The position numbers were made by a program, and so were the translations under genes. From the sequence record MT446420.1: 64,000 nt of DNA; one strand, 5' to 3'. Shown one piece after another: positions 5,606-22,131 of the stretch. The notes beneath the pieces are model-generated. The model was given only the letters and a program-made list of their open reading frames with translations. It was not told where the DNA came from and ran no database searches. Numbering within the stretch: position 1 is the stretch's first letter; the number at the start of each line of letters is the position of its first letter. This DNA comes from Escherichia virus TH54.

Positions 5606-6178
5606 TCAGCTTGTCAATTCGAGCCAATGTTTCCTGCATAAAGATACGTACGATTCATTCCCACCGACCAATACTTGCTCGCCGTCCTTTACAGCAGCAC
5701 CGTCGATTACTCGAGCGGTCATGGTTGCTTTCCGGCCGCAATGGCAGACGCCCTTTAATTCAACCAGTTTATCCGAAATAGCCAGAAGTCTGGCTGAACC
5801 GGGAAATAACTGACCCCGAAAATCTGTTCTTAGCCCGTAACACATAACGGGGATATTGTAATTATCAACCACTCGTGCTAACTGGTCAATTTGCTCTGGC
5901 AACAAAAATTGAGCTTCATCGACCAGGACACAATGGATGTCCTTTTGAGACTCGGCCCATTTATAGAATTCAAACAGGTTCATGTCGGCCGTTACCAGGT
6001 TTGCTTCCTGGCTAATACCAATACGTGATTTAATTTCAGATTCCGAGTCCCGATTATCAATAACAGGCTTTAGCAAAAGCACACTCATTCCACGCTCTTT
6101 ATAGGAATAAGCGGCAGTCAGCAATGAAGCTGTTTTGCCTGCATTCATTGCTGCGTAATGATAAATTAAACTCGCCAT
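5606..6178 (-). CDS. tk: thymidine kinase
   Basis: 190 aa; P-loop AAMNAGKTASLL, VDEAQF and CHCGRKA zinc motif; near-colinear with T4 Tk. Confidence 0.9.
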   Translation of the reverse strand: MASLIYHYAAMNAGKTASLLTAAYSYKERGMSVLLLKPVIDNRDSESEIKSRIGISQEANLVTADMNLFEFYKWAESQKDIHCVLVDEAQFLLPEQIDQLARVVDNYNIPVMCYGLRTDFRGQLFPGSARLLAISDKLVELKGVCHCGRKATMTARVIDGAAVKDGEQVLVGGNESYVSLCRKHWLELTS

Positions 6179-6187
6179 ATCACCTTC

Positions 6188-6373
6188 TTAAAGCGTATTC
6201 ACATAAGCTATTAATTCGTTTTCTTTCTCATCAAATCGATTAGCAAATTCTTCCAGATGGTCGGCATCTATCGGGCCATATTCATCATAAAAGGCGTTTG
6301 CTTCCGTATGCTCGTCCAAAAGCTCATGGATAAGCTCAAACAATCTACTTTTCTGACTAATACTTAAACTCAT
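6188..6373 (-). CDS. hypothetical small acidic protein
   Basis: 61-aa ORF, overlaps next gene start. Confidence 0.4.
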   Translation of the reverse strand: MSLSISQKSRLFELIHELLDEHTEANAFYDEYGPIDADHLEEFANRFDEKENELIAYVNTL

Positions 6374-6576
6374 TTCAGTTCACCATATCGTACAAATTCA
6401 GGGTGTTCACAATCACCAGAATGGAGACCTTCACCTTCATGGTTAGGACATCCTTTATTAGAACAGTACCACCAGTAATCAAATCCACATTCCATTTCAT
6501 CGTTGCATAAAACTGCGATTACTGGCCATTCGCATTTTTCACATTTGGCCGTTTTAAGAATTCGGGCTTGGCTCAT
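6370..6576 (-). CDS. Cys-rich small protein, probable zinc ribbon
   Basis: 68 aa with CxxC...C...C...CxxC...C pattern. Confidence 0.45.
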   Translation of the reverse strand: MSQARILKTAKCEKCEWPVIAVLCNDEMECGFDYWWYCSNKGCPNHEGEGLHSGDCEHPEFVRYGELK

Positions 6577-7027
6577 AATCCACCACTATTAAATCAATAT
6601 CAGGAGTAAACATGTCGATTAATTTAGAAACCTTATCCCAATCGCCGCCAGCAATACCACAACCAATACGAGGAATATAAATTACCGGTTTAAACAAAAG
6701 GGTTTCTGCCTGTAGATTTAATTCTATCATACAATTTACTAAAGCGCCATAATCAAGATTAGGGCCCGGTTCATATTGGGTGTACAAATTATAACACATA
6801 CCAAACCCAGTAGGCTTATGTTTAAAAACAATAGACATATCACCGAGTTTTTCTCTGGAACCATATTCAGTAGTGGTTTTATCTATTTCTAAAACTTTTG
6901 GATAAGCCTTCGCCAACTGTCCAGCTACGCCAGAACCCATTGTGTGAAAGCAGTTGCAACCATGTGCAATAATATTGCCTTGAAGAAAGAGGGCGACAAT
7001 ATCGCCCTTAATATACTGGGTAATCAT
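6554..7027 (-). CDS. macro-domain protein (ADP-ribose-binding/processing fold)
   Basis: 157 aa; GDIV..GNIIAHGCNCF..MGSGVAGQ and later IGCGIAGGDW resemble macro-domain glycine-rich motifs. Confidence 0.5.
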   Translation of the reverse strand: MITQYIKGDIVALFLQGNIIAHGCNCFHTMGSGVAGQLAKAYPKVLEIDKTTTEYGSREKLGDMSIVFKHKPTGFGMCYNLYTQYEPGPNLDYGALVNCMIELNLQAETLLFKPVIYIPRIGCGIAGGDWDKVSKLIDMFTPDIDLIVVDYEPSPNS

Positions 7028-7383
7028 TTAGAGTTCAATCCTCTATTATATGAATCCACTAACCTGTCAACCATACTGGTGCAGGCCGCCTTATATTTTG
7101 CACTTGAAAGAATGCAATCCATTTCAAATAATTTCTTTTCATATTTGTTGGATAATACATTCTTTTTCAAAAGTGTATGTTCAACATCATTTTGACCATC
7201 TTTATATGCCGCGGTGAGCTTGGCGCTGAACTGGATTACACAATCCACATTGCTTGCTGCGCAATAATCTTTAGCCGTCCTCGTTGCATATTCTATGATG
7301 CTGTTGTTGTCATCGCTCTGTACTGAAGCTATTCCTCCCATGCTGAATACTAACCCTATGGCTAAAGTGATAACTCTTACCAT
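7024..7383 (-). CDS. secreted/periplasmic hypothetical protein
   Basis: 119 aa with N-terminal signal peptide MVRVITLAIGLVFSMGGIASVQS. Confidence 0.45.
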   Translation of the reverse strand: MVRVITLAIGLVFSMGGIASVQSDDNNSIIEYATRTAKDYCAASNVDCVIQFSAKLTAAYKDGQNDVEHTLLKKNVLSNKYEKKLFEMDCILSSAKYKAACTSMVDRLVDSYNRGLNSK

Positions 7384-7385
7384 TT

Positions 7386-7928
7386 TTAATCCACCGTTTT
7401 TAATAGGCCTCGTGATTTTAAGTAGTTAGCTTTTTCTAGGACTTGTGAAGCATACTTATTACCAGCTTTCACATTCCACCCTGCGTTATATGATGATAGT
7501 GTTTTCCTTATATCCCCCTTATGAATATCCAACCAGTATGAAAGCTCAATGTAAGCCCAGCGTGCACTGTTCTCTCTCTTGCTTATCATCTTGATTATTT
7601 CTTTATCTGTCATTGTCCACCCAACCTGTTTCACGCGTTCGCGCACGGTTGGAAGATAATTTTGGAATATACCATATGCATGGTGCTTATCTTTATTTAA
7701 TCCAGTATTAATCCCAGCAGAACTCTCCTGCCAGGTTAAACCAGCCATGATATATCCCAAACCATTATGTTGGTGCGGATTTTCTTTGTACTTACCATTT
7801 TTCTGGAACTGTTCTCCAAACGCATAAGCATATTGAAGGTTTTCCATTTGTTCATTACTGAAAGTAGGCTCTACGCTATGGGCAGACATACTAACTGTCA
7901 ATAGTAAGGTGGCGATTACTTTTTTCAT
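7386..7928 (-). CDS. secreted lysozyme-like / lytic transglycosylase-like protein
   Basis: signal peptide MKKVIATLLLTVSMSAHS; E-S...GIFQ...YNAG pattern reminiscent of SLT domain. Confidence 0.45.
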   Translation of the reverse strand: MKKVIATLLLTVSMSAHSVEPTFSNEQMENLQYAYAFGEQFQKNGKYKENPHQHNGLGYIMAGLTWQESSAGINTGLNKDKHHAYGIFQNYLPTVRERVKQVGWTMTDKEIIKMISKRENSARWAYIELSYWLDIHKGDIRKTLSSYNAGWNVKAGNKYASQVLEKANYLKSRGLLKTVD

Positions 7929-7938
7929 GAATTCCCCA

Positions 7939-8397
7939 TTAGATATAAATCACTTTTGTGCTAATTTTTCCTTCCAGACGATTAGAGTTAACAAACGCCA
8001 TACGGCAACACATGGTTGGAGACTTCCCAGGAATAGCGGGGTTAACTGTCATTCCTAACCATAGGTTCTTGTCCGTGATTTCCAGACGAAGTGGACGGTA
8101 GTTCACATTCGGGTCAATTTGTGCTTCAACTTCCGGGAGTGGTTTCATCTCCAAGAATTCAACGATTTCTTTTACATGTGGTGTGATTTTTCCAAACAAG
8201 TCAAAAACATATTGTTCATCAATTTCACGCTGGATTGCACGGTCCAATAGGTGTGGACTGTACTTAATGAAGAATGCTTCAAGGCCTGCTTCTTTACAAG
8301 CCTTGTTGATAGCATTATTAATTTTGAGGAACTCCGTTTCAAAAATGCGACGAAGTTTATTGCGGCGAATGTAAACACTTGAATCGATAGTAGTCAT
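7939..8397 (-). CDS. regB: RegB endoribonuclease
   Basis: 153 aa from MTTIDSSVYIRRNKLRR; near-colinear with T4 RegB; AGGAG SD. Confidence 0.85.
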   Translation of the reverse strand: MTTIDSSVYIRRNKLRRIFETEFLKINNAINKACKEAGLEAFFIKYSPHLLDRAIQREIDEQYVFDLFGKITPHVKEIVEFLEMKPLPEVEAQIDPNVNYRPLRLEITDKNLWLGMTVNPAIPGKSPTMCCRMAFVNSNRLEGKISTKVIYI

Positions 8398-8399
8398 GA

Positions 8400-8453
8400 T
8401 TATCTCCTTTTGTTTGATGGGATAATCATAACTCATTTCAATCTGCTTGTACA

Positions 8454-8455
<2 letters not shown>
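8400..8455 (-). promoter_or_regulatory. early promoter (-35 TGTACA, -10 TATGAT) with GATGGGATA inverted repeat
   Basis: minus-strand TGTACA-N17-TATGAT upstream of regB SD. Confidence 0.5.
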
Positions 8456-9033
<578 letters not shown>

Positions 9034-9037
<4 letters not shown>

Positions 9038-9252
9038 TTCACTTCCTCGCCAGTTGCGATATCATATTCCACCAAACGAATGCCGTCAGTCCAACCTTGC
9101 ACGGAGATATAAGTAGTTGGATAAATCATTTCTTTACCATTCCACTGACCACCGTCCCAGCATTCCAGAAAGTCTTGTTCACCTGGTCCATTAAACCATT
9201 CAACAAATCTCTTCAAAGCTGCATCAGAACCTTCAATTGTCAATTTAGACAT
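9034..9252 (-). CDS. hypothetical small protein
   Basis: ORF from MSKLTIEGSD; Trp-rich. Confidence 0.4.
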
Positions 9253-9544
9253 ATTTTTTCCAGTCACTAATTAATCGCACATCCTGGTCATACGTCAGGA
9301 GGCTACGAGTTATAATACCCTTACATGGTCCAGAAATAAATTCCAGGGTAAAGTAAGGAACCAACTTCATCAAGCGAATACTCGGAGCAGTGCAACGAAA
9401 TCTGGACCCAATAAAAGGTCCAGACAAAAACACATACTCAAAGAAATTTGCTTTATTAAAGATTTCAAAATTCTTTACGAAATCTTCTGACCTAACCTTT
9501 GGAATAAAATAGATTTGGTCAAAAAGCTCTTCATGGGTCATCAT
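9245..9544 (-). CDS. hypothetical protein
   Basis: 99-aa ORF with ATGA overlap to upstream gene. Confidence 0.4.
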   Translation of the reverse strand: MMTHEELFDQIYFIPKVRSEDFVKNFEIFNKANFFEYVFLSGPFIGSRFRCTAPSIRLMKLVPYFTLEFISGPCKGIITRSLLTYDQDVRLISDWKKYV

Positions 9545-10086
9545 TGCATTCCTATCACAAAGAACAGTGGACGTGTGGTTTGATTGGTTTCTTCACATGA
9601 TGCACGACAGCAATGTTGCACCACCTTTATATGGGCATCGTAAATTTTATCCATATCCGGTGTTTTAATAGGTTCATCAATTATATACAGAATACGTGAA
9701 AGTGATAATCCACGGAATTTGCATGCAGTATTACCAATAAAACTACGAACAGAATCAGTGTACAAACGATACTTAATACTTTCTGTATGGTTATTAAAAT
9801 ATTCCTTTCTGATTGCAGTAGCCGAAACATTAGCATATGCCGTGTTATTAGACAAAATAACAATAGAACCGCCATCAGCTAACCATTCCGTAGCAAAAAT
9901 GGATACCGCTTTAGTTTTACCGGATTGGCGCCCGCCATCAAGTTTTAAGGTGCAGCATTCTTTAAACAGGGTTTGTGAATCGGGTACATAAAACCCACTA
10001 TTACAAATGTGTTCTACTCTAGCATCAGAATGGTTTGCAAAAGCATTCATCAGGGATAGATAACTACCGGTTAAAAACGTTTTCAT
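9541..10086 (-). CDS. small P-loop NTPase
   Basis: 181 aa; Walker A GGRQSGKT and Walker B-like ILYIIDEP. Confidence 0.5.
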   Translation of the reverse strand: MKTFLTGSYLSLMNAFANHSDARVEHICNSGFYVPDSQTLFKECCTLKLDGGRQSGKTKAVSIFATEWLADGGSIVILSNNTAYANVSATAIRKEYFNNHTESIKYRLYTDSVRSFIGNTACKFRGLSLSRILYIIDEPIKTPDMDKIYDAHIKVVQHCCRASCEETNQTTRPLFFVIGMQ

Positions 10087-10087
10087 A

Positions 10088-10155
10088 ATTGTCTCTTTTT
10101 AAGTTGTGGGCCGTTCCTTGGCACATTAATTCATCCATGTATCCGAATGTAAACC
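10088..10155 (-). promoter_or_regulatory. putative early promoter (-35 GTTTAC) for P-loop gene
   Basis: minus-strand GTTTAC with AT-rich -10 region and AAGAG SD before ATG 10086. Confidence 0.3.
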
Positions 10156-10250
10156 CCTTACCGCACTCGGGCTCGACCTTATTACAGGTAGGGAAAGGTC
10201 CATCACTCAGAGGACGCGACGTTCATGAGGAGAGGGTCGGTTTGCCTTTA

Positions 10251-12922: not shown

Positions 12923-13506
12923 TTACGGCATTCCTCAATAAAAGAGTTCAATGTATTTTTCTTGGCGATATCGTCGTATACCTTTTTAACTTTAGAAATA
13001 CGAAAAGGTACTTCAATAACCATAGTCCATAAAAGTGATGCAATAAGTCCAACAGCAGCAGAAGAAATGCACGCGCCCATTACAGCTACAGGTGCTTCAT
13101 TTTTACCTGTCAGGAAAAACCACAGGATTGGTAAAAATAAGATTCCAGCCCATGCATAAAACCTGGAACAAATTAACTTATCAAATTCATCTTTCCAGGT
13201 ACGAAATCCATATTTCTTGCTATAAGAAATTAATGGGTCTGGTGTCTGTTCTTTGAGTGGTTCTGGTTGATGCCCATTAATGATGTATCCCATTTTATAT
13301 TCCTTAATTAAAAGCTCTTTCATATGACGATTGCATCGCGACCAATCAACATTTTCAACCTTGATTCCTTCATCACCATCATCAAGGTTCGCCCAATATT
13401 TTTTGGCAATCATAAATTCGTCTCTTGATACAATTATACCTGTATTTTCTGGGCGACGGATGAAGTTTACATCAACACCCATACACCCAGGTTCATAAAG
13501 GGCCAT
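12919..13506 (-). CDS. membrane protein, 2 TM helices
   Basis: 195 aa; hydrophobic segments AWAGILFLPILWFFL and VMGACISSAAVGLIASLLW; C-terminal FIEECRK shared with paralogs. Confidence 0.45.
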   Translation of the reverse strand: MALYEPGCMGVDVNFIRRPENTGIIVSRDEFMIAKKYWANLDDGDEGIKVENVDWSRCNRHMKELLIKEYKMGYIINGHQPEPLKEQTPDPLISYSKKYGFRTWKDEFDKLICSRFYAWAGILFLPILWFFLTGKNEAPVAVMGACISSAAVGLIASLLWTMVIEVPFRISKVKKVYDDIAKKNTLNSFIEECRK

Positions 13507-14195
13507 TACCAGCCCTCCATGGGGAATTCCAGATATACTTGAGCATTAACGCGGATTTCATTGGTAACTTTATTAACACGGTCAGTTTTACGAGATACGC
13601 GACCAAACCAGCGCCAACCGTTACTAACTGTTTTTGTTCCAGTATGCCAGGTCTGCCAGTTGAATTCACATAATGTGCGGTCAGGAGCTTCTTGAACTAA
13701 AAGTTCACCCGCCTTGATTTTTTCCAGAACTTCCTGGTGCCACTGGCGATAGATAAGTTCGCCATCAGGAATCTGACTGAATTCTGCAGTTCCAAGAGCA
13801 AAATTAGTAGGGCAAACAGAAGCGTTAACCAGACCCAGGATGTGTTCAGAATGGTAACGAGGGTTATCATAATCAGGTTGTCCTGCTGTAATAAAATGTT
13901 GTCCTGCTGGAATATCTGGTCGCGGTACGTCATCATGGTGATATCCAGGGATAGCAGGATACCAACCAGGCATTAACATGTGTACACGGGAATCAAATAC
14001 AATATCAGGGCCACATTGCCAATCTTCAGGCAGGTTTTCAATAAAGCTACGAGTAATAGGACCGCCATGCTTATGCGCAAATTCTGGATAGCAGTTAAAG
14101 AACATGGGCTCATTTTTAATCATATCATTACTGATATCTTGAGCAAATTGACCAACTTCACGCATTTGACTATTAAAAGTTTTTGGACTGTTCAT
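13506..14195 (-). CDS. hypothetical protein with His/Asp-rich motifs
   Basis: 229 aa; GYHHDDVP and RYHSEH motifs; preceded by promoter/stem-loop. Confidence 0.45.
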   Translation of the reverse strand: MNSPKTFNSQMREVGQFAQDISNDMIKNEPMFFNCYPEFAHKHGGPITRSFIENLPEDWQCGPDIVFDSRVHMLMPGWYPAIPGYHHDDVPRPDIPAGQHFITAGQPDYDNPRYHSEHILGLVNASVCPTNFALGTAEFSQIPDGELIYRQWHQEVLEKIKAGELLVQEAPDRTLCEFNWQTWHTGTKTVSNGWRWFGRVSRKTDRVNKVTNEIRVNAQVYLEFPMEGW

Positions 14196-14197
14196 AA

Positions 14198-14252
14198 TAT
14201 TTTCCTCATTGATTGTGGGACCATTGTGTCATGGTCCCACTTGGATGTACAC
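14198..14252 (-). promoter_or_regulatory. putative early promoter with 10-bp inverted repeat GTGGGACCAT
   Basis: minus strand GTGTACA upstream; perfect inverted repeat GTGGGACCATgacacaATGGTCCCAC. Confidence 0.4.
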
Positions 14253-14254
14253 AA

Positions 14255-15214
14255 TTATTTTTCGAAAGGACGAATTAAATGTTGGTTAGCCTTAAAGCGT
14301 TTAACATAGTCTTCATGACCCAGTGTGTTATACATATTAACCACGTCCTGATAATGTTCCCAGGCATACTCACGGAACCATCCAGAAGTAATGGAGGTGC
14401 AGACTTTTTCCAGCGCAATATGGAAGCTCATGGATGGAGAGATATTGAACTCATTAGGAACCTGCGAACGTTCCAGAGCGAGCACACATGCTTCTTCATA
14501 AACCCCTGCCAGTTTAATAACATCAGGCAGTGCTTCAAATTTTTCACGTGAGGTCATGACTTCTGAATCATCCTTCATATAGAACTTATATGCAGGCTTA
14601 TCAGCAAGCGCCACAGCCTCGTGGATGGAGTCATGGTCAAGGGTATAGATTGTATCATTAAAGAAAGTTTTCTTGCCCACATCTAGTTTAGGGTGACTGT
14701 ATGACAGTGTTTCTGCCTGACGCTGCAGCATGATTTTCTGCAGTTCATCATTAAGAACAACACCCTTATTGCGAAGATAATTAATATGACTCATGGTCTT
14801 CAGGAAGAATGGGTTGTTCTTCAGGTAACGATGAGACAATTTAATCGCCAGACAAATATCAGGAGTCGCCCAATAGAAACCTGTAAGACGGTCTTTCTTA
14901 ATATGATTTTCAGCGTATTTCAAGAGACGATAACTTGAGGTGAAATCTTCGTCTTGAAGCTCACCAGTAATTTCTCGTACGTTAGTCAGGGCACGGACAA
15001 TATAAGCTTCAAAATAGGTTTCTTTGCCATTGTACATACATTTAAAAGCTTGGACATCAGGGTTATCCACAGGAACATGAGCACCGAACATACGTGCTTT
15101 AAAGTGGTTCCAAGAACCCTGGTCAGCGATAAAGTCCCAATCAGAGTTTTCAATTTTCTGACTTTCAATCAGACCAGCGTTATGTAATGCACGAGAACCA
15201 ATAACTAACATCAT
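14255..15214 (-). CDS. hypothetical protein
   Basis: 319 aa from MMLVIGSRALHNAG; GS...SDWDF spacing loosely nucleotidyltransferase-like; GAGGAAA SD. Confidence 0.45.
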   Translation of the reverse strand: MMLVIGSRALHNAGLIESQKIENSDWDFIADQGSWNHFKARMFGAHVPVDNPDVQAFKCMYNGKETYFEAYIVRALTNVREITGELQDEDFTSSYRLLKYAENHIKKDRLTGFYWATPDICLAIKLSHRYLKNNPFFLKTMSHINYLRNKGVVLNDELQKIMLQRQAETLSYSHPKLDVGKKTFFNDTIYTLDHDSIHEAVALADKPAYKFYMKDDSEVMTSREKFEALPDVIKLAGVYEEACVLALERSQVPNEFNISPSMSFHIALEKVCTSITSGWFREYAWEHYQDVVNMYNTLGHEDYVKRFKANQHLIRPFEK

Positions 15215-15233
15215 AATATTTTCCTCAGTAAAC

Positions 15234-15473
15234 TTAAATTTCAGCAACGTAATCGTTATGCAATTCCCACATATCATCAGAATTATTCTTAATGATAGGA
15301 ATTATCTCATTAGAGATTTCTTCTGCATAAGGGTCATTGATACAGTGAGCATCTTCAAAACGAACACCATAATCAGACTTCTTATAAGAGAAGCCATAAA
15401 TCTTTTTAAACTTGGCACGAGTAATGCGTACCGGTTCATTAGACTTATCGGACATCGGAGCGTAATACCACAT
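15234..15473 (-). CDS. hypothetical small protein
   Basis: 79-aa ORF. Confidence 0.4.
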   Translation of the reverse strand: MWYYAPMSDKSNEPVRITRAKFKKIYGFSYKKSDYGVRFEDAHCINDPYAEEISNEIIPIIKNNSDDMWELHNDYVAEI

Positions 15474-15585
15474 ATATTCTCCTCATATTGTGTAAAGTAA
15501 TAGTATCGCAGTTTTTTGGAGTTGTATACTGCTTCTGCAATATTCTAAAAATAATTTATCCTCCTATCACATCCTTGTGATAATT

Positions 15586-15819
15586 TTAGCAGCTACTCGG
15601 ATACCAGATTTTACCATCGGCACGAGCAACGAAGGTACGACCAGCTTCTTCACCATAACAAGAGCTGTTCAACCAGTCTTCAAGACGGACTTCGCCGTCA
15701 TAATCATCAAGCTCAACACCAAAATCTTGAGCAGAAGCCATATCTTTTACTTTCTTATACAGTGCAGCCAGTTCAAGGGCAGCTTTTTCTAATTCAGCAT
15801 GTTCAACAGCAGTAGTCAT
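15586..15819 (-). CDS. small protein of C-terminal W-x-SS-C family
   Basis: 77 aa from MTTAVEHAELEK, ends WYPSSC; SD lies in upstream gene's last codons. Confidence 0.45.
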   Translation of the reverse strand: MTTAVEHAELEKAALELAALYKKVKDMASAQDFGVELDDYDGEVRLEDWLNSSCYGEEAGRTFVARADGKIWYPSSC

Positions 15820-15829
15820 TTTTATTTCC

Positions 15830-16057
15830 TTAGCAAGACATAGAGGAGTTAAACCAGAAACCTTTACCATCTGGGATACCATAATCACCGCGAATCCAGT
15901 CATACTCTTCGTATTCTGGACAACCCGCAGGAATATATCGTTGAAGACTGTCAGCATACACATGAAAGTATTCACCAGTTTTATCGGCCAGTTGTTCACC
16001 TTCACAGATTAGTGCACGGATTTGGTCTTCAATTTCTTTAACAGTTTTAGCAGTCAT
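15830..16057 (-). CDS. small protein of C-terminal W-x-SS-C family
   Basis: 75 aa, ends FWFNSSMSC. Confidence 0.45.
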   Translation of the reverse strand: MTAKTVKEIEDQIRALICEGEQLADKTGEYFHVYADSLQRYIPAGCPEYEEYDWIRGDYGIPDGKGFWFNSSMSC

Positions 16058-16066
16058 TTTATTTCC

Positions 16067-16264
16067 TTAGCATTCGTAAGAGGAGGACACCCAGGAGCCA
16101 CCCGTAATTGTAATACAGCCATTGTAAATCGTGATATGACGGTCCAGATGGTTTTCACCTTCGATATAGATGTCGGCTTCTTCACGTTCTTCTTTACAAA
16201 TCTGGATAACGTTTTCAATAGCTGCCGCGGCAGTACGGATTGCACAATCTAATTCACGAGACAT
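16067..16264 (-). CDS. small protein of C-terminal W-x-SS-C family
   Basis: 65 aa, ends GGSWVSSSYEC. Confidence 0.45.
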   Translation of the reverse strand: MSRELDCAIRTAAAAIENVIQICKEEREEADIYIEGENHLDRHITIYNGCITITGGSWVSSSYEC

Positions 16265-16273
16265 AATAATTCC

Positions 16274-16555
16274 TTAACATTCAACAGAAGAGGACACCCA
16301 ACCACCATTTTCCAGGTCAGTTGTATAGTCATGAGTATTAACAATAGCCCATTCAGGATGACCATGTTCTTCCCAATGAGCAAGGTCGGCTTTCAAGGCG
16401 CCAGGAGAATAATAGTCACCGCCCATACCGCGAGCAGGGTATATATTAAAATGAGTCTCATATTTGTCTGCAATTTCCTCGGCACGACGAATAGCTTTAT
16501 GGATATCATTTACTGCGGCCAGAAGCTCTGGTTGGTTATGGTTATCATTCATCAT
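16274..16555 (-). CDS. small protein of C-terminal W-x-SS-C family
   Basis: 93 aa from MMNDNHNQ, ends NGGWVSSSVEC. Confidence 0.45.
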   Translation of the reverse strand: MMNDNHNQPELLAAVNDIHKAIRRAEEIADKYETHFNIYPARGMGGDYYSPGALKADLAHWEEHGHPEWAIVNTHDYTTDLENGGWVSSSVEC

Positions 16556-16556
16556 A

Positions 16557-16847
16557 TTAGCACACCTCAGAAGAGGAAACCCAGGCACCAACAGTAACAA
16601 TGCCGTTTTCAACTTGCCCGCCGTTGTTTTCAATATGGTGGGCGAACCATTCGGAACATTCATAACCGACTGGGTGATATGTACGGCCGGTGCCGTAATC
16701 GCCAGTGCTGAATTCGATACCATATTCATCTGCGATTTCTTCACAGTGTTTTTCAATTTCAGAGGTCTTATTTAGAAGAGAATAGATAGCTTTTTCTGCA
16801 GATTTCTCATCATAATACTTGGGGATAGCAATTTCAATTTTATTCAT
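16557..16847 (-). CDS. small protein of C-terminal W-x-SS-C family
   Basis: 96 aa, ends GAWVSSSEVC. Confidence 0.45.
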   Translation of the reverse strand: MNKIEIAIPKYYDEKSAEKAIYSLLNKTSEIEKHCEEIADEYGIEFSTGDYGTGRTYHPVGYECSEWFAHHIENNGGQVENGIVTVGAWVSSSEVC

Positions 16848-21978: not shown

Positions 21979-22055
21979 TGGTCGGGGTGGTGGGATTCTA
22001 ACCCACAACCTACGGTTTAGAAGACCGTTGCTCTATACAATTGAGCTACACCCCG
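21979..22055 (-). tRNA. tRNA-Arg (anticodon UCU)
   Basis: hand-folded cloverleaf: acceptor CGGGGTG/CACCCCG, D arm GCTC/GAGC, anticodon loop CTTCTAA, T arm GTGGG/CCCAC, 3' ACCA; ends +/- 2 nt. Confidence 0.8.
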
Positions 22056-22057
22056 GG

Positions 22058-22131
22058 TGGCCCCATCCGGACTTGAACCGGAAACCTGCCAGTTATGAGC
22101 CGGATGCTCTAACCAATTGAGCTACAGGGCC
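22058..22131 (-). tRNA. tRNA with CAU anticodon, probably tRNA-Ile (AUA-decoding) rather than Met
   Basis: acceptor GGCCCTG/TGGGGCC with two G-U pairs, anticodon loop CTCATAA, T arm TCCGG/CCGGA; no encoded CCA. Confidence 0.7.

Follow-up and report, generated by a model that had tools for sequence, protein, structure and literature searches.

What do two enzyme-like genes do in the hyperplastic (accessory-gene) region of a T4-like phage, and with which partners? The question was raised by a stretch of 64,000 nucleotides from Escherichia virus TH54 (sequence record MT446420.1; hereafter the window), in which two adjoining open reading frames (ORFs) encode a 229-aa protein (P1) and a 319-aa protein (P2). 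Both ORFs were found at the positions that a first-pass annotation of the sequence had given, on the minus strand (Table 1), and both proteins are members of large, almost purely viral families without assigned function. The conserved partner of P2 is an array of small genes directly upstream, which this annotation had missed. The most valuable result of the analysis is the conserved cassette formed by these small genes and P2, a predicted MenT-like nucleotidyltransferase (NTase). A literature search on DUF7275 (the domain family of P2), phage MenT-like enzymes and phage RiPPs (peptides that are ribosomally made and then modified post-translationally) gave nothing on these families, and no paper was found that describes such a cassette.

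The small proteins came to light when all ORFs around P2 relatives at 80 diverse viral loci were clustered. They form a family of 65-120 aa, comprising phrog_899 and phrog_4882, for which there is no Pfam model. Between members the protein bodies share only 20-40% identity; they have an N-terminal helix and often the pattern ADEhG..F...YGxGxTYYP. The last residues of the protein, referred to here as the tail, read W-x(1-2)-S-[SA]-x(0-2)-C, and in an alignment of 28 sequences the tryptophan, the serine and the terminal cysteine were invariant. In the window the array consists of five tandem, tightly packed and translationally coupled genes. Their Shine-Dalgarno (SD) sequences have the form TAAGGAAATAAA-ATG, the stop codon of the preceding gene being part of the SD. 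Among the 689 ORFs of the window the C-terminal ending was restricted to the five ORFs of this array.

The linkage of tail genes to P2 was directional. A regular expression for the tail placed at least one tail-bearing ORF on the strand of P2, no more than 2 kb upstream, in 73 of the 80 loci; one further locus was missed owing to an over-called P2 start. The background frequency of the ending was 15 in 3715 same-strand ORFs elsewhere and 4 in 6152 on the opposite strand. With a narrower tail pattern, 189 copies were counted upstream of P2 versus 2 downstream, with 1-5 copies per locus. The linkage was kept in 22 of the 25 P2 clusters at 70% identity, and the linked loci include contigs of 355-371 kb (jumbo phages), ~95 kb and ~150 kb without other shared synteny. 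The reverse look-up gave the same picture: starting from three homologues of the small proteins in public assemblies, 5 of 5 places had a DUF7277/DUF7275 gene downstream, at a distance below 1.2 kb. The cassette thus ranges over T4-like, jumbo and mid-sized phages of Gram-negative hosts, and the sequence evidence makes it reasonably probable that P2 and the tail proteins are functionally linked. The conserved C-terminal motif and the tandem paralogues give the small genes a likeness to RiPP clusters. One of eight small proteins matched Nif11 (E 0.0033), its 18.1 bits being below the cut-off of 23.8.

P2 matched the Pfam models DUF7277 and DUF7275 (Table 1) and phrog_2141. Its GS (residues 6-7) and SDWDF (residues 24-28) had been likened loosely to an NTase motif with non-canonical spacing, and this guess proved right: the motif is a genuine signature of the DNA polymerase beta (pol-beta) type with a longer than usual spacer. 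P2 contains all elements of hG[GS]-x(9-13)-Dh[DE]h followed by a third carboxylate, with a spacer of 17 residues, beyond the classical 9-13, and with E69 (in YFEAYI) as the third carboxylate. Among 72 relatives D25, D27 and E69 were invariant, and G6 and S7 were conserved in at least 90%. In the DUF7275 region K125, H128, H194-D195-x-x-H198, GVYEE-x-CVLALER and K-VC-x-SITSG-x-FR were invariant as well; K125 (in IKLSHRY) may correspond to motif III of DUF1814. The structure model of P2 (mean predicted local distance difference test (pLDDT) 92.3) has strands and helices that follow the NTase pattern, and its best Foldseek matches were the NTase-like structure 5uvd and MenT1, both with a probability of 1.0. 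The predicted fold is nearest to the MenT/AbiEii toxins and ANT(2''). From fold and conservation, P2 is predicted to be a pol-beta-type NTase of the MenT/AbiEii/ANT structural group with its catalytic residues intact, plus an extremely conserved helical region, and it is very probably an active enzyme.

P2 was found in 731 phage records. In 185,579 species genomes, a pattern-limited scan that covered close relatives only gave five contigs, all from metagenome-assembled genomes, and for this reason the family looks phage-restricted. A match of P2 to the PADLOC model CARF_HEPN (E 0.018) was treated as noise.

Three known systems are close enough to P2 for comparison. MenT toxins extend tRNA 3' ends with nucleotides, and MenT1 of Mycobacterium tuberculosis is blocked at its active site by MenA1, a helical 68-aa protein encoded directly upstream (PMC10435456). 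The gene order of MenA1-MenT1 is analogous to that of the P2 loci. However, P2 differs from MenT/AbiEii in its low identity (~10%), in an extra, highly conserved region of ~130 residues (the C-terminal part of DUF7275), in being phage-restricted instead of a chromosomal toxin-antitoxin component, and in having 1-5 upstream partners conserved in the extreme C-terminal tail and not in the helix. Membership of P2 in DUF1814 by sequence was rejected, since none of the 72 family members matched PF08843 (DUF1814) at E<=1, although the similarity of the structural core holds. The RlaP type (BCP1, Av05) is the one family of phage NTases already characterised. These enzymes, which make 3'3'-cGAMP (cyclic GMP-AMP) and act against TIR-STING (Ho et al., bioRxiv 10.1101/2022.06.09.495361), resemble P2 as phage pol-beta NTases with a helical C-terminal domain, encoded in an accessory or anti-defence-type region, and the strings GSR and ENSDWDF of P2 are identical in BCP1. 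Both Av05_0062 and BCP1 match the RlaP catalytic motif GS-x-AY[GAN]T-x4-SDxD exactly, whereas P2 reads GS-R-ALHNAGLIESQKIEN-SDWD, with 16 residues instead of 9 and without AYGT. In addition, P2 lacks NP-x-h2-[DE] ~60 residues after SDxD and has no match to PF10127; the BCP1 enzyme matches PF10127 at 1.6e-17, and hhalign of the P2 family against BCP1 gave a probability of 5%. On these grounds a place for P2 in the RlaP/anti-STING family was rejected. In GlnD/PII, MNT-HEPN and CitX/MdcG-type systems a pol-beta-fold NTase nucleotidylylates a small protein or attaches a nucleotide-derived group to it; the partner is encoded in the neighbourhood, and the acceptor is the hydroxyl of a Ser or Tyr. 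These are precedents for the arrangement proposed for P2, but none of them is known to use an acceptor in an extreme C-terminal tail.

P1 was assigned to phrog_1843, a family of unknown function (E 7.5e-92), and had no match among the Pfam, NCBIfam and PADLOC models. Searching 1.84 billion cluster representatives with a P1 profile (E<=0.001) gave 746 relatives (50%-identity representatives), mostly of 205-240 aa, from which 105 diverse relatives, 31-54% identical to the query, were taken to score conservation. H86 and R195 were invariant in this sample; D88, H118, H184, R70, R92, R199 and R215 were conserved in at least 90%, and H87 and H115 were not conserved. The first-pass annotation had proposed a metal centre from the clusters GYHHDDVP (residues 84-91) and RYHSEH (residues 113-118). 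Part of this stands: H86 and D88 make up the H-x-D half of a proposed facial triad. H87 drops out, as does the second cluster except for H118, and the site as first drawn was incomplete; H184 and R195, both unnoticed, complete the proposed site. An H-x-D...H triad with an arginine after the distal histidine is the arrangement of Fe(II)/2-oxoglutarate (2OG) oxygenases such as PhyH, and in human PhyH the arginine follows the distal histidine by 11 residues. P1 has H86-x-D88...H184, with R195, 11 residues past H184, as the proposed counterpart of the basic residue (Arg/Lys) that in this superfamily binds the C5 carboxylate of 2OG ~10 residues after the distal histidine.

In the AlphaFold2 (AF2) model of P1 (pLDDT 89.9), H184 and R195 are on consecutive strands, the strand of R195 spanning E193-202. 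All of the top 50 Foldseek matches in the PDB were Fe/2OG oxygenases or halogenases whose substrates are amino acids or small molecules, including HygX, SptF, WelO5, GriE, SyrB2, SnoK and the proline hydroxylase H11. Profile searches of the PDB with P1, P2 and the small-protein families gave nothing significant; the best, non-significant matches of P1 were lysine halogenases of the BesD type, whose distal His and Arg align with H184 and R195. In two independent cases P1 homologues were automatically annotated as 'phytanoyl-CoA dioxygenase'. Several results weigh against the oxygenase assignment. The Foldseek matches, which would make the fold a double-stranded beta-helix like that of the solved members, were weak (template modelling score 0.26-0.41, E ~2e-3, with a probability of up to 0.99), the P1 profile reached no known 2OG family, and PF05721 (PhyH) matched none of 62 close relatives and 1 of 105 distant ones, at E 0.068. 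With no match at threshold, P1 was rejected as a member of Pfam PhyH. Matches to the Pfam model AAR2_1st (E 0.002-0.011, below the cut-off) were treated as noise, and the longer P1 relatives carry no Pfam domains as fusion partners. All considered, P1 is likely to be an Fe(II)/2OG oxygenase, and we read it as a new family inside that superfamily, outside Pfam PhyH. It shares with the PhyH-like oxygenases and halogenases (HygX, GriE, SyrB2, BesD, H11) the H-x-D...H triad and the arginine at +11, and theirs is the sole class among its fold matches; it differs in having no significant profile match, in its size (~225 aa, shorter than most) and in being almost entirely phage-borne. P1 would act as a stand-alone non-haem enzyme in which H86, D88 and H184 hold Fe(II) and R195 holds 2OG, and it would hydroxylate or otherwise oxidise its substrate. 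Because R70, R92, R199 and R215 are additional conserved arginines, this substrate is suggested to be anionic.

The guess that both proteins are enzymes holds at the level of the superfamily, from structure prediction and conservation together. No homology to structural or non-enzymatic families was found for either, and the motifs are conserved. With the superfamilies placed and the catalytic residues named, P1 and P2 are directly testable.

We favour an explanation in which P1 and P2 are separate auxiliary enzymes in the hyperplastic region of a T4-like phage, with no two-step pathway between them, and in which P2 and the small acidic proteins from the genes immediately upstream of it function together as a cassette. 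To this explanation as a whole, including nucleotidylylation of the tail, we give a probability of roughly 0.4. The analysis shows the fold classes, the conservation of the catalytic residues, the direction of the gene linkage, the constancy of the tail and the independence of P1; from these we infer the catalytic activity, the acceptor residue and the biological role as follows. P2 would use a nucleoside triphosphate and Mg2+, bound by D25, D27 and E69, and would transfer a nucleoside monophosphate to the invariant serine of the W-x-x-S-S-x-x-C tail; that this serine is the acceptor is a tentative proposal. The divergent bodies of the tail proteins would carry different functions, so that one maturase would serve several substrates. 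The small proteins are favoured as substrates on several grounds: what is invariant in them is an exposed tail, in which Ser and Cys offer two nucleophiles; the DUF7275 motifs of P2 are equally invariant across lineages; several paralogues of divergent sequence have retained this tail, as would suit a single enzyme with many substrates; and the MenA1 antitoxin shows the opposite, its helix being important and its C-terminus dispensable. Follow-on chemistry or a RiPP-like fate would be possible, for example elimination and addition of the cysteine, or the liberation of a small product in the manner of cofactors derived from RiPPs; in the enterobacterial T4-like phages a further tailoring step might come from the neighbouring 2OG oxygenase. 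That P2 and the tail proteins form an unrecognised, phage-specific tail-modification system which matures divergent phage effector proteins is possible, if doubtful. From the location of the genes, a role in anti-defence or host takeover is plausible.

Four points weigh against this explanation. The linkage counts take in related phages and are therefore not fully independent. A tail protein was not detected in ~6 of the 80 P2 loci, nor at the P2 homologue of Gordonia phage ClubL, and P2 can therefore exist without tail proteins. The nearest characterised relatives of P2 have tRNA 3' ends or small molecules as substrates and do not modify proteins. Finally, a small upstream gene followed by an NTase gene equally fits, by analogy, the antitoxin-toxin order of MenA1-MenT1. 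P2 might then be a tRNA 3'-end NTase, serving host translation control or tRNA-end repair, and the small proteins would block its active site as inhibitors or regulators of the MenA1 kind instead of being substrates. MenT1 as the best structural match of P2, the acidic small proteins with their N-terminal helix, the RNA-repair genes Rnl1 and Pnkp 3-5 kb away in one distant locus and the ClubL P2 homologue at 1.2 kb from a tRNA cluster would all agree with this. However, in MenA1 the C-terminal 17 residues are dispensable and it is the helix that matters (PMC10435456), whereas here the helix is variable and the tail invariant; a single inhibitor would be enough, yet up to 5 divergent paralogues are kept; and P2 is outside DUF1814 by sequence. 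Proximity to tRNA genes was rejected as a clue to P2, since these were within 6 kb in just 4 of 50 distant loci. We consider such an inhibitor-enzyme pair rather unlikely. It is very unlikely that P2 makes a free cyclic or linear dinucleotide that disturbs host immune signalling, with the small proteins as unrelated neighbours: the strong directional linkage to the tail proteins would be left unexplained, and P2 fails the RlaP-type tests given above, even though phage NTases were shown to make 3'3'-cGAMP/cAA (bioRxiv 10.1101/2022.06.09.495361) and share GSR and the heptad ENSDWDF exactly with P2 in the case of BCP1. A SIR2-family neighbour in 8 distant loci loosely recalls anti-defence neighbourhoods; other candidate neighbours had no Pfam support. 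In general, the neighbours of P2 besides the tail proteins were heterogeneous (metallophosphatase, SIR2, DNA ligase, Rnl1/Pnkp) and pointed to no common pathway. The genes might also be uncoupled altogether, with the tail proteins, P2 and P1 as accessory genes held together by inherited synteny and P2 modifying a small molecule like ANT(2'') or LnuA. This is unlikely as well, given that order and strand are fixed and that the linkage holds across most P2 clusters and persists in phage groups without other synteny (jumbo, ~95-kb and T4-like contigs).

The remaining alternative, implied when P1 and P2 are taken as a pair, makes them the two enzymes of a single pathway: P2 would activate a shared substrate, for example a nucleotide, a base of DNA or RNA, or the tail of the small proteins, and P1 would oxidise it. 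Using a hidden Markov model (HMM), a P1 homologue was found within 6 kb of P2 in 23 of the 80 loci, 21 of them from enterobacterial and 2 from Aeromonas T4-like phages. In all 23, P1 was downstream of P2 on the same strand, at 10-900 bp, which speaks for such a pathway. Gordonia Smoothievirus genomes carry both families, and some structural relatives of P1, such as SyrB2, act on carrier-tethered amino acids. On the other hand, in 57 of the 80 P2 loci a P1 is absent at this distance, and P1 relatives occur alone in five other phage lineages; those in Gordonia, Mycobacterium, Bacillus and Serratia phages had no P2 or tail protein within 4-5 kb, and where the phage host is Gram-positive P1 lies by itself. 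ClubL carries the two genes 44 kb from each other. Moreover, the P2-P1 junction is an insertion and recombination hot spot: its length varies from 10 to ~900 bp, and among its insertions are unrelated ORFans and a probable homing endonuclease. P1 also has a promoter-like element of its own. Obligate pairing was rejected, P1 is independent of P2, and we regard a shared pathway as highly improbable. At the junction itself, two relatives contain a 216-aa ORF (MGRPLKDLTG...CHCGEEF...; locus L007, 6963-7613, and locus L013, 6864-7514), which looks like a homing-endonuclease-type gene; others contain a 96-aa ORFan or a 128-143-aa membrane ORFan.

If P2 does modify the tails, as in the explanation that we favour, viral proteins would be matured in a way that is new in kind; should the small proteins restrain an enzyme that modifies tRNA, the cassette would be a phage counterpart of a bacterial toxin-antitoxin and abortive-infection module. 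Either outcome is relevant to host takeover by phages or to their defence against hosts. Genetics is feasible, because cultured coliphages (JS98, JS10, Bp7, VR25 and Mosigvirus-type phages) carry the cassette.

The closest DNA matches of the window were VR25, CJ20, EAWsc9 and JS10, and its source is a T4-like myovirus of the Gaprivervirus/Dhakavirus group. Every gene of the P1/P2 stretch is carried by the minus strand. The order of transcription is the five small ORFs, a 79-aa ORF, P2, a 59-nt spacer and P1, followed by a gene for an e.2-like membrane protein and then nudE, lysozyme e and denV (Table 1). The equivalent site in T4 is e.3-e.5. As the first-pass annotation had noted, P1 and P2 are larger than the ORFs of the T4 e region (e.2-e.8, 87-202 aa). 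The syntenic 14 kb of T4 contains no relative of P1, P2 or the small tail proteins, and this absence of all three families is cassette behaviour.

Table 1. Positions in the window of the genes and sequence elements of the P1/P2 stretch
Feature	Position	Strand	Basis and remarks
Small acidic protein 1, 96 aa, pI 4.6, ...WVSSSEVC	16557..16847	-	Family HMM, E 1.3e-24; first gene of the array
Small acidic protein 2, 93 aa, pI 4.9, ...WVSSSVEC	16274..16555	-	Family HMM, E 1e-21
Small acidic protein 3, 65 aa, pI 4.5, ...WVSSSYEC	16067..16264	-	phrog_4882; HMM, E 6e-12
Small acidic protein 4, 75 aa, pI 4.4, ...WFNSSMSC	15830..16057	-	Family HMM, E 3.7e-18
Small acidic protein 5, 77 aa, pI 4.4, ...WYPSSC	15586..15819	-	phrog_899; HMM, E 2.3e-5
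T4-early-type promoter-like sequence	15500..15529	-	GTATAC 15529-15524, 18 nt, TACTAT 15505-15500; read from the sequence
79-aa ORF	15234..15473	-	phrog_3723; 19-nt gap upstream of P2; without C-terminal tail motif
P2, 319 aa, predicted MenT/AbiEii-like pol-beta NTase head and helical domain	14255..15214	-	DUF7277 (residues 2-101), DUF7275 (residues 120-305)
Putative PeSL-type intergenic element between P2 and P1	14196..14254	-	Inverted repeat, RNA fold, layout in relatives
-35-like GTGTAC, 18-nt spacer, -10-like CACAAT	14252-14247 (-35-like), 14228-14223 (-10-like)	-	Reading of the sequence
Stem-loop arms with loop GACACA; SD GAGG	14240-14231 and 14224-14215 (arms), 14207-14204 (SD)	-	Reading of the sequence
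P1, 229 aa, predicted Fe(II)/2OG-dependent oxygenase	13506..14195	-	ORF, phrog_1843, conservation, AF2 model and Foldseek

P2 can also be read as a protein of 340 aa with its start at 15277. The start at 15214 (319 aa, MMLVIGS) was preferred because it fits the homologues and has the SD GAGGAAAATATT before the ATG; this SD string is common to P1 and P2. The longer ribosome-binding string TGAGGAAAATATT-ATG is likewise identical for the two genes (14196-14214 and 15215-15233). The 79-aa ORF belongs to cluster c28, which was present in 12 of the 80 P2 loci.

A promoter with a perfect 10-bp inverted repeat had been proposed in front of both ORFs. The repeat is real. However, because it lies between the two ORFs, downstream of P2, the element that bears it precedes P1 alone. 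Read on the coding strand, the spacer is TAA-TTGTGTACATCCAA-GTGGGACCAT-GACACA-ATGGTCCCAC-AATCAATGAGGAAAATATT-ATG, the arms GTGGGACCAT and ATGGTCCCAC being perfect and separated by a loop of 6 nt. The repeat has no second copy in the window, for which chance would give 0 matches, and the hairpin has an RNA folding energy of -19.7 kcal/mol (z = -2.97 versus shuffles). A generic sigma-70 and terminator scan gave no site at the hairpin; the sole promoter-like reading in the element was a T4-early-type match with weak boxes (Table 1). At the same site, JS98-type relatives have GT(G/T)TACA, a different perfect stem-loop and TACTAT, followed by SD and ATG, and a Mosigvirus-type relative has GTTTACA, a stem-loop and TATAGT, again followed by SD and ATG. 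The ATG after the element of the relatives often belongs to an inserted ORFan. In T4-type phages, promoter-early stem-loop (PeSL) cassettes combine an early promoter with a stem-loop; they end the transcription that arrives from upstream and are mediators of shuffling by modules (Arbiol et al. 2010; Comeau et al. 2014; PMC2839356; PMC4122927). They share with the present site its position in a hyperplastic region, the succession of stop codon, -35-like box, stem-loop between or overlapping the boxes, SD and ATG, and the ORFan insertion seen in the relatives; the copy in the window differs in its degenerate promoter and in the lack of a U-tract after the stem. Going by its layout, we identify the inverted repeat as the putative stem-loop of a PeSL-type promoter/terminator cassette.

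The promoter-like sequence upstream of the 79-aa ORF and P2 (Table 1) has better boxes than the intergenic copy and resembles the GTGTAC/GTTTAC...TACTAT of the relatives; transcription of P2 probably starts from it. Between this sequence and the last small-protein gene a short inverted repeat is present (TATCACA-AGGA-TGTGATA, 15563-15580, minus strand), which may be another small stem-loop element.

The identity of P1 between E. coli phages and two Aeromonas phages (L035 and L036) was 79%, with 45% for the adjoining P2, and P1 was found at 69% identity in a 49.8-kb record of a Stenotrophomonas phage. This means that P1 either is under unusually strong constraint or was recently acquired by horizontal transfer. 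In four phages, RNA-repair or RNA-processing genes adjoin P1 relatives or are located within 2-4 kb: the P1 relative abuts an RtcB ligase gene in Gordonia phage ClubL (L003, 3787-5672), is near RtcB and a tRNA cluster in Mycobacterium phage Auspice (L005, 1565-5681), and is near a polynucleotide kinase (PNK) gene in Gordonia phage Skog (L094) and a 3' exoribonuclease gene in Serratia phage Kashira (L093). These neighbours may hint at an RNA-related substrate or may just share an early-region location. As a clue to the function of P1, the RtcB/PNK/exoribonuclease neighbourhood was rejected, being suggestive in these four phages but not consistent.

In a 67.5-kb metagenomic phage contig (L087), the tail-protein/P2 cassette is flanked upstream by genes for a T4-type Rnl1 RNA ligase and Pnkp, and downstream by genes for a metallophosphatase and an ATP-dependent DNA ligase (flanks at 1-2046 and 5929-10246). 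In the window, adjacent genes for tRNA-Arg(TCT) and tRNA-Met(CAT) are present on the minus strand at 21979-22131, upstream of the array of small proteins by ~5 kb. The corresponding place in T4 contains eight tRNA genes.

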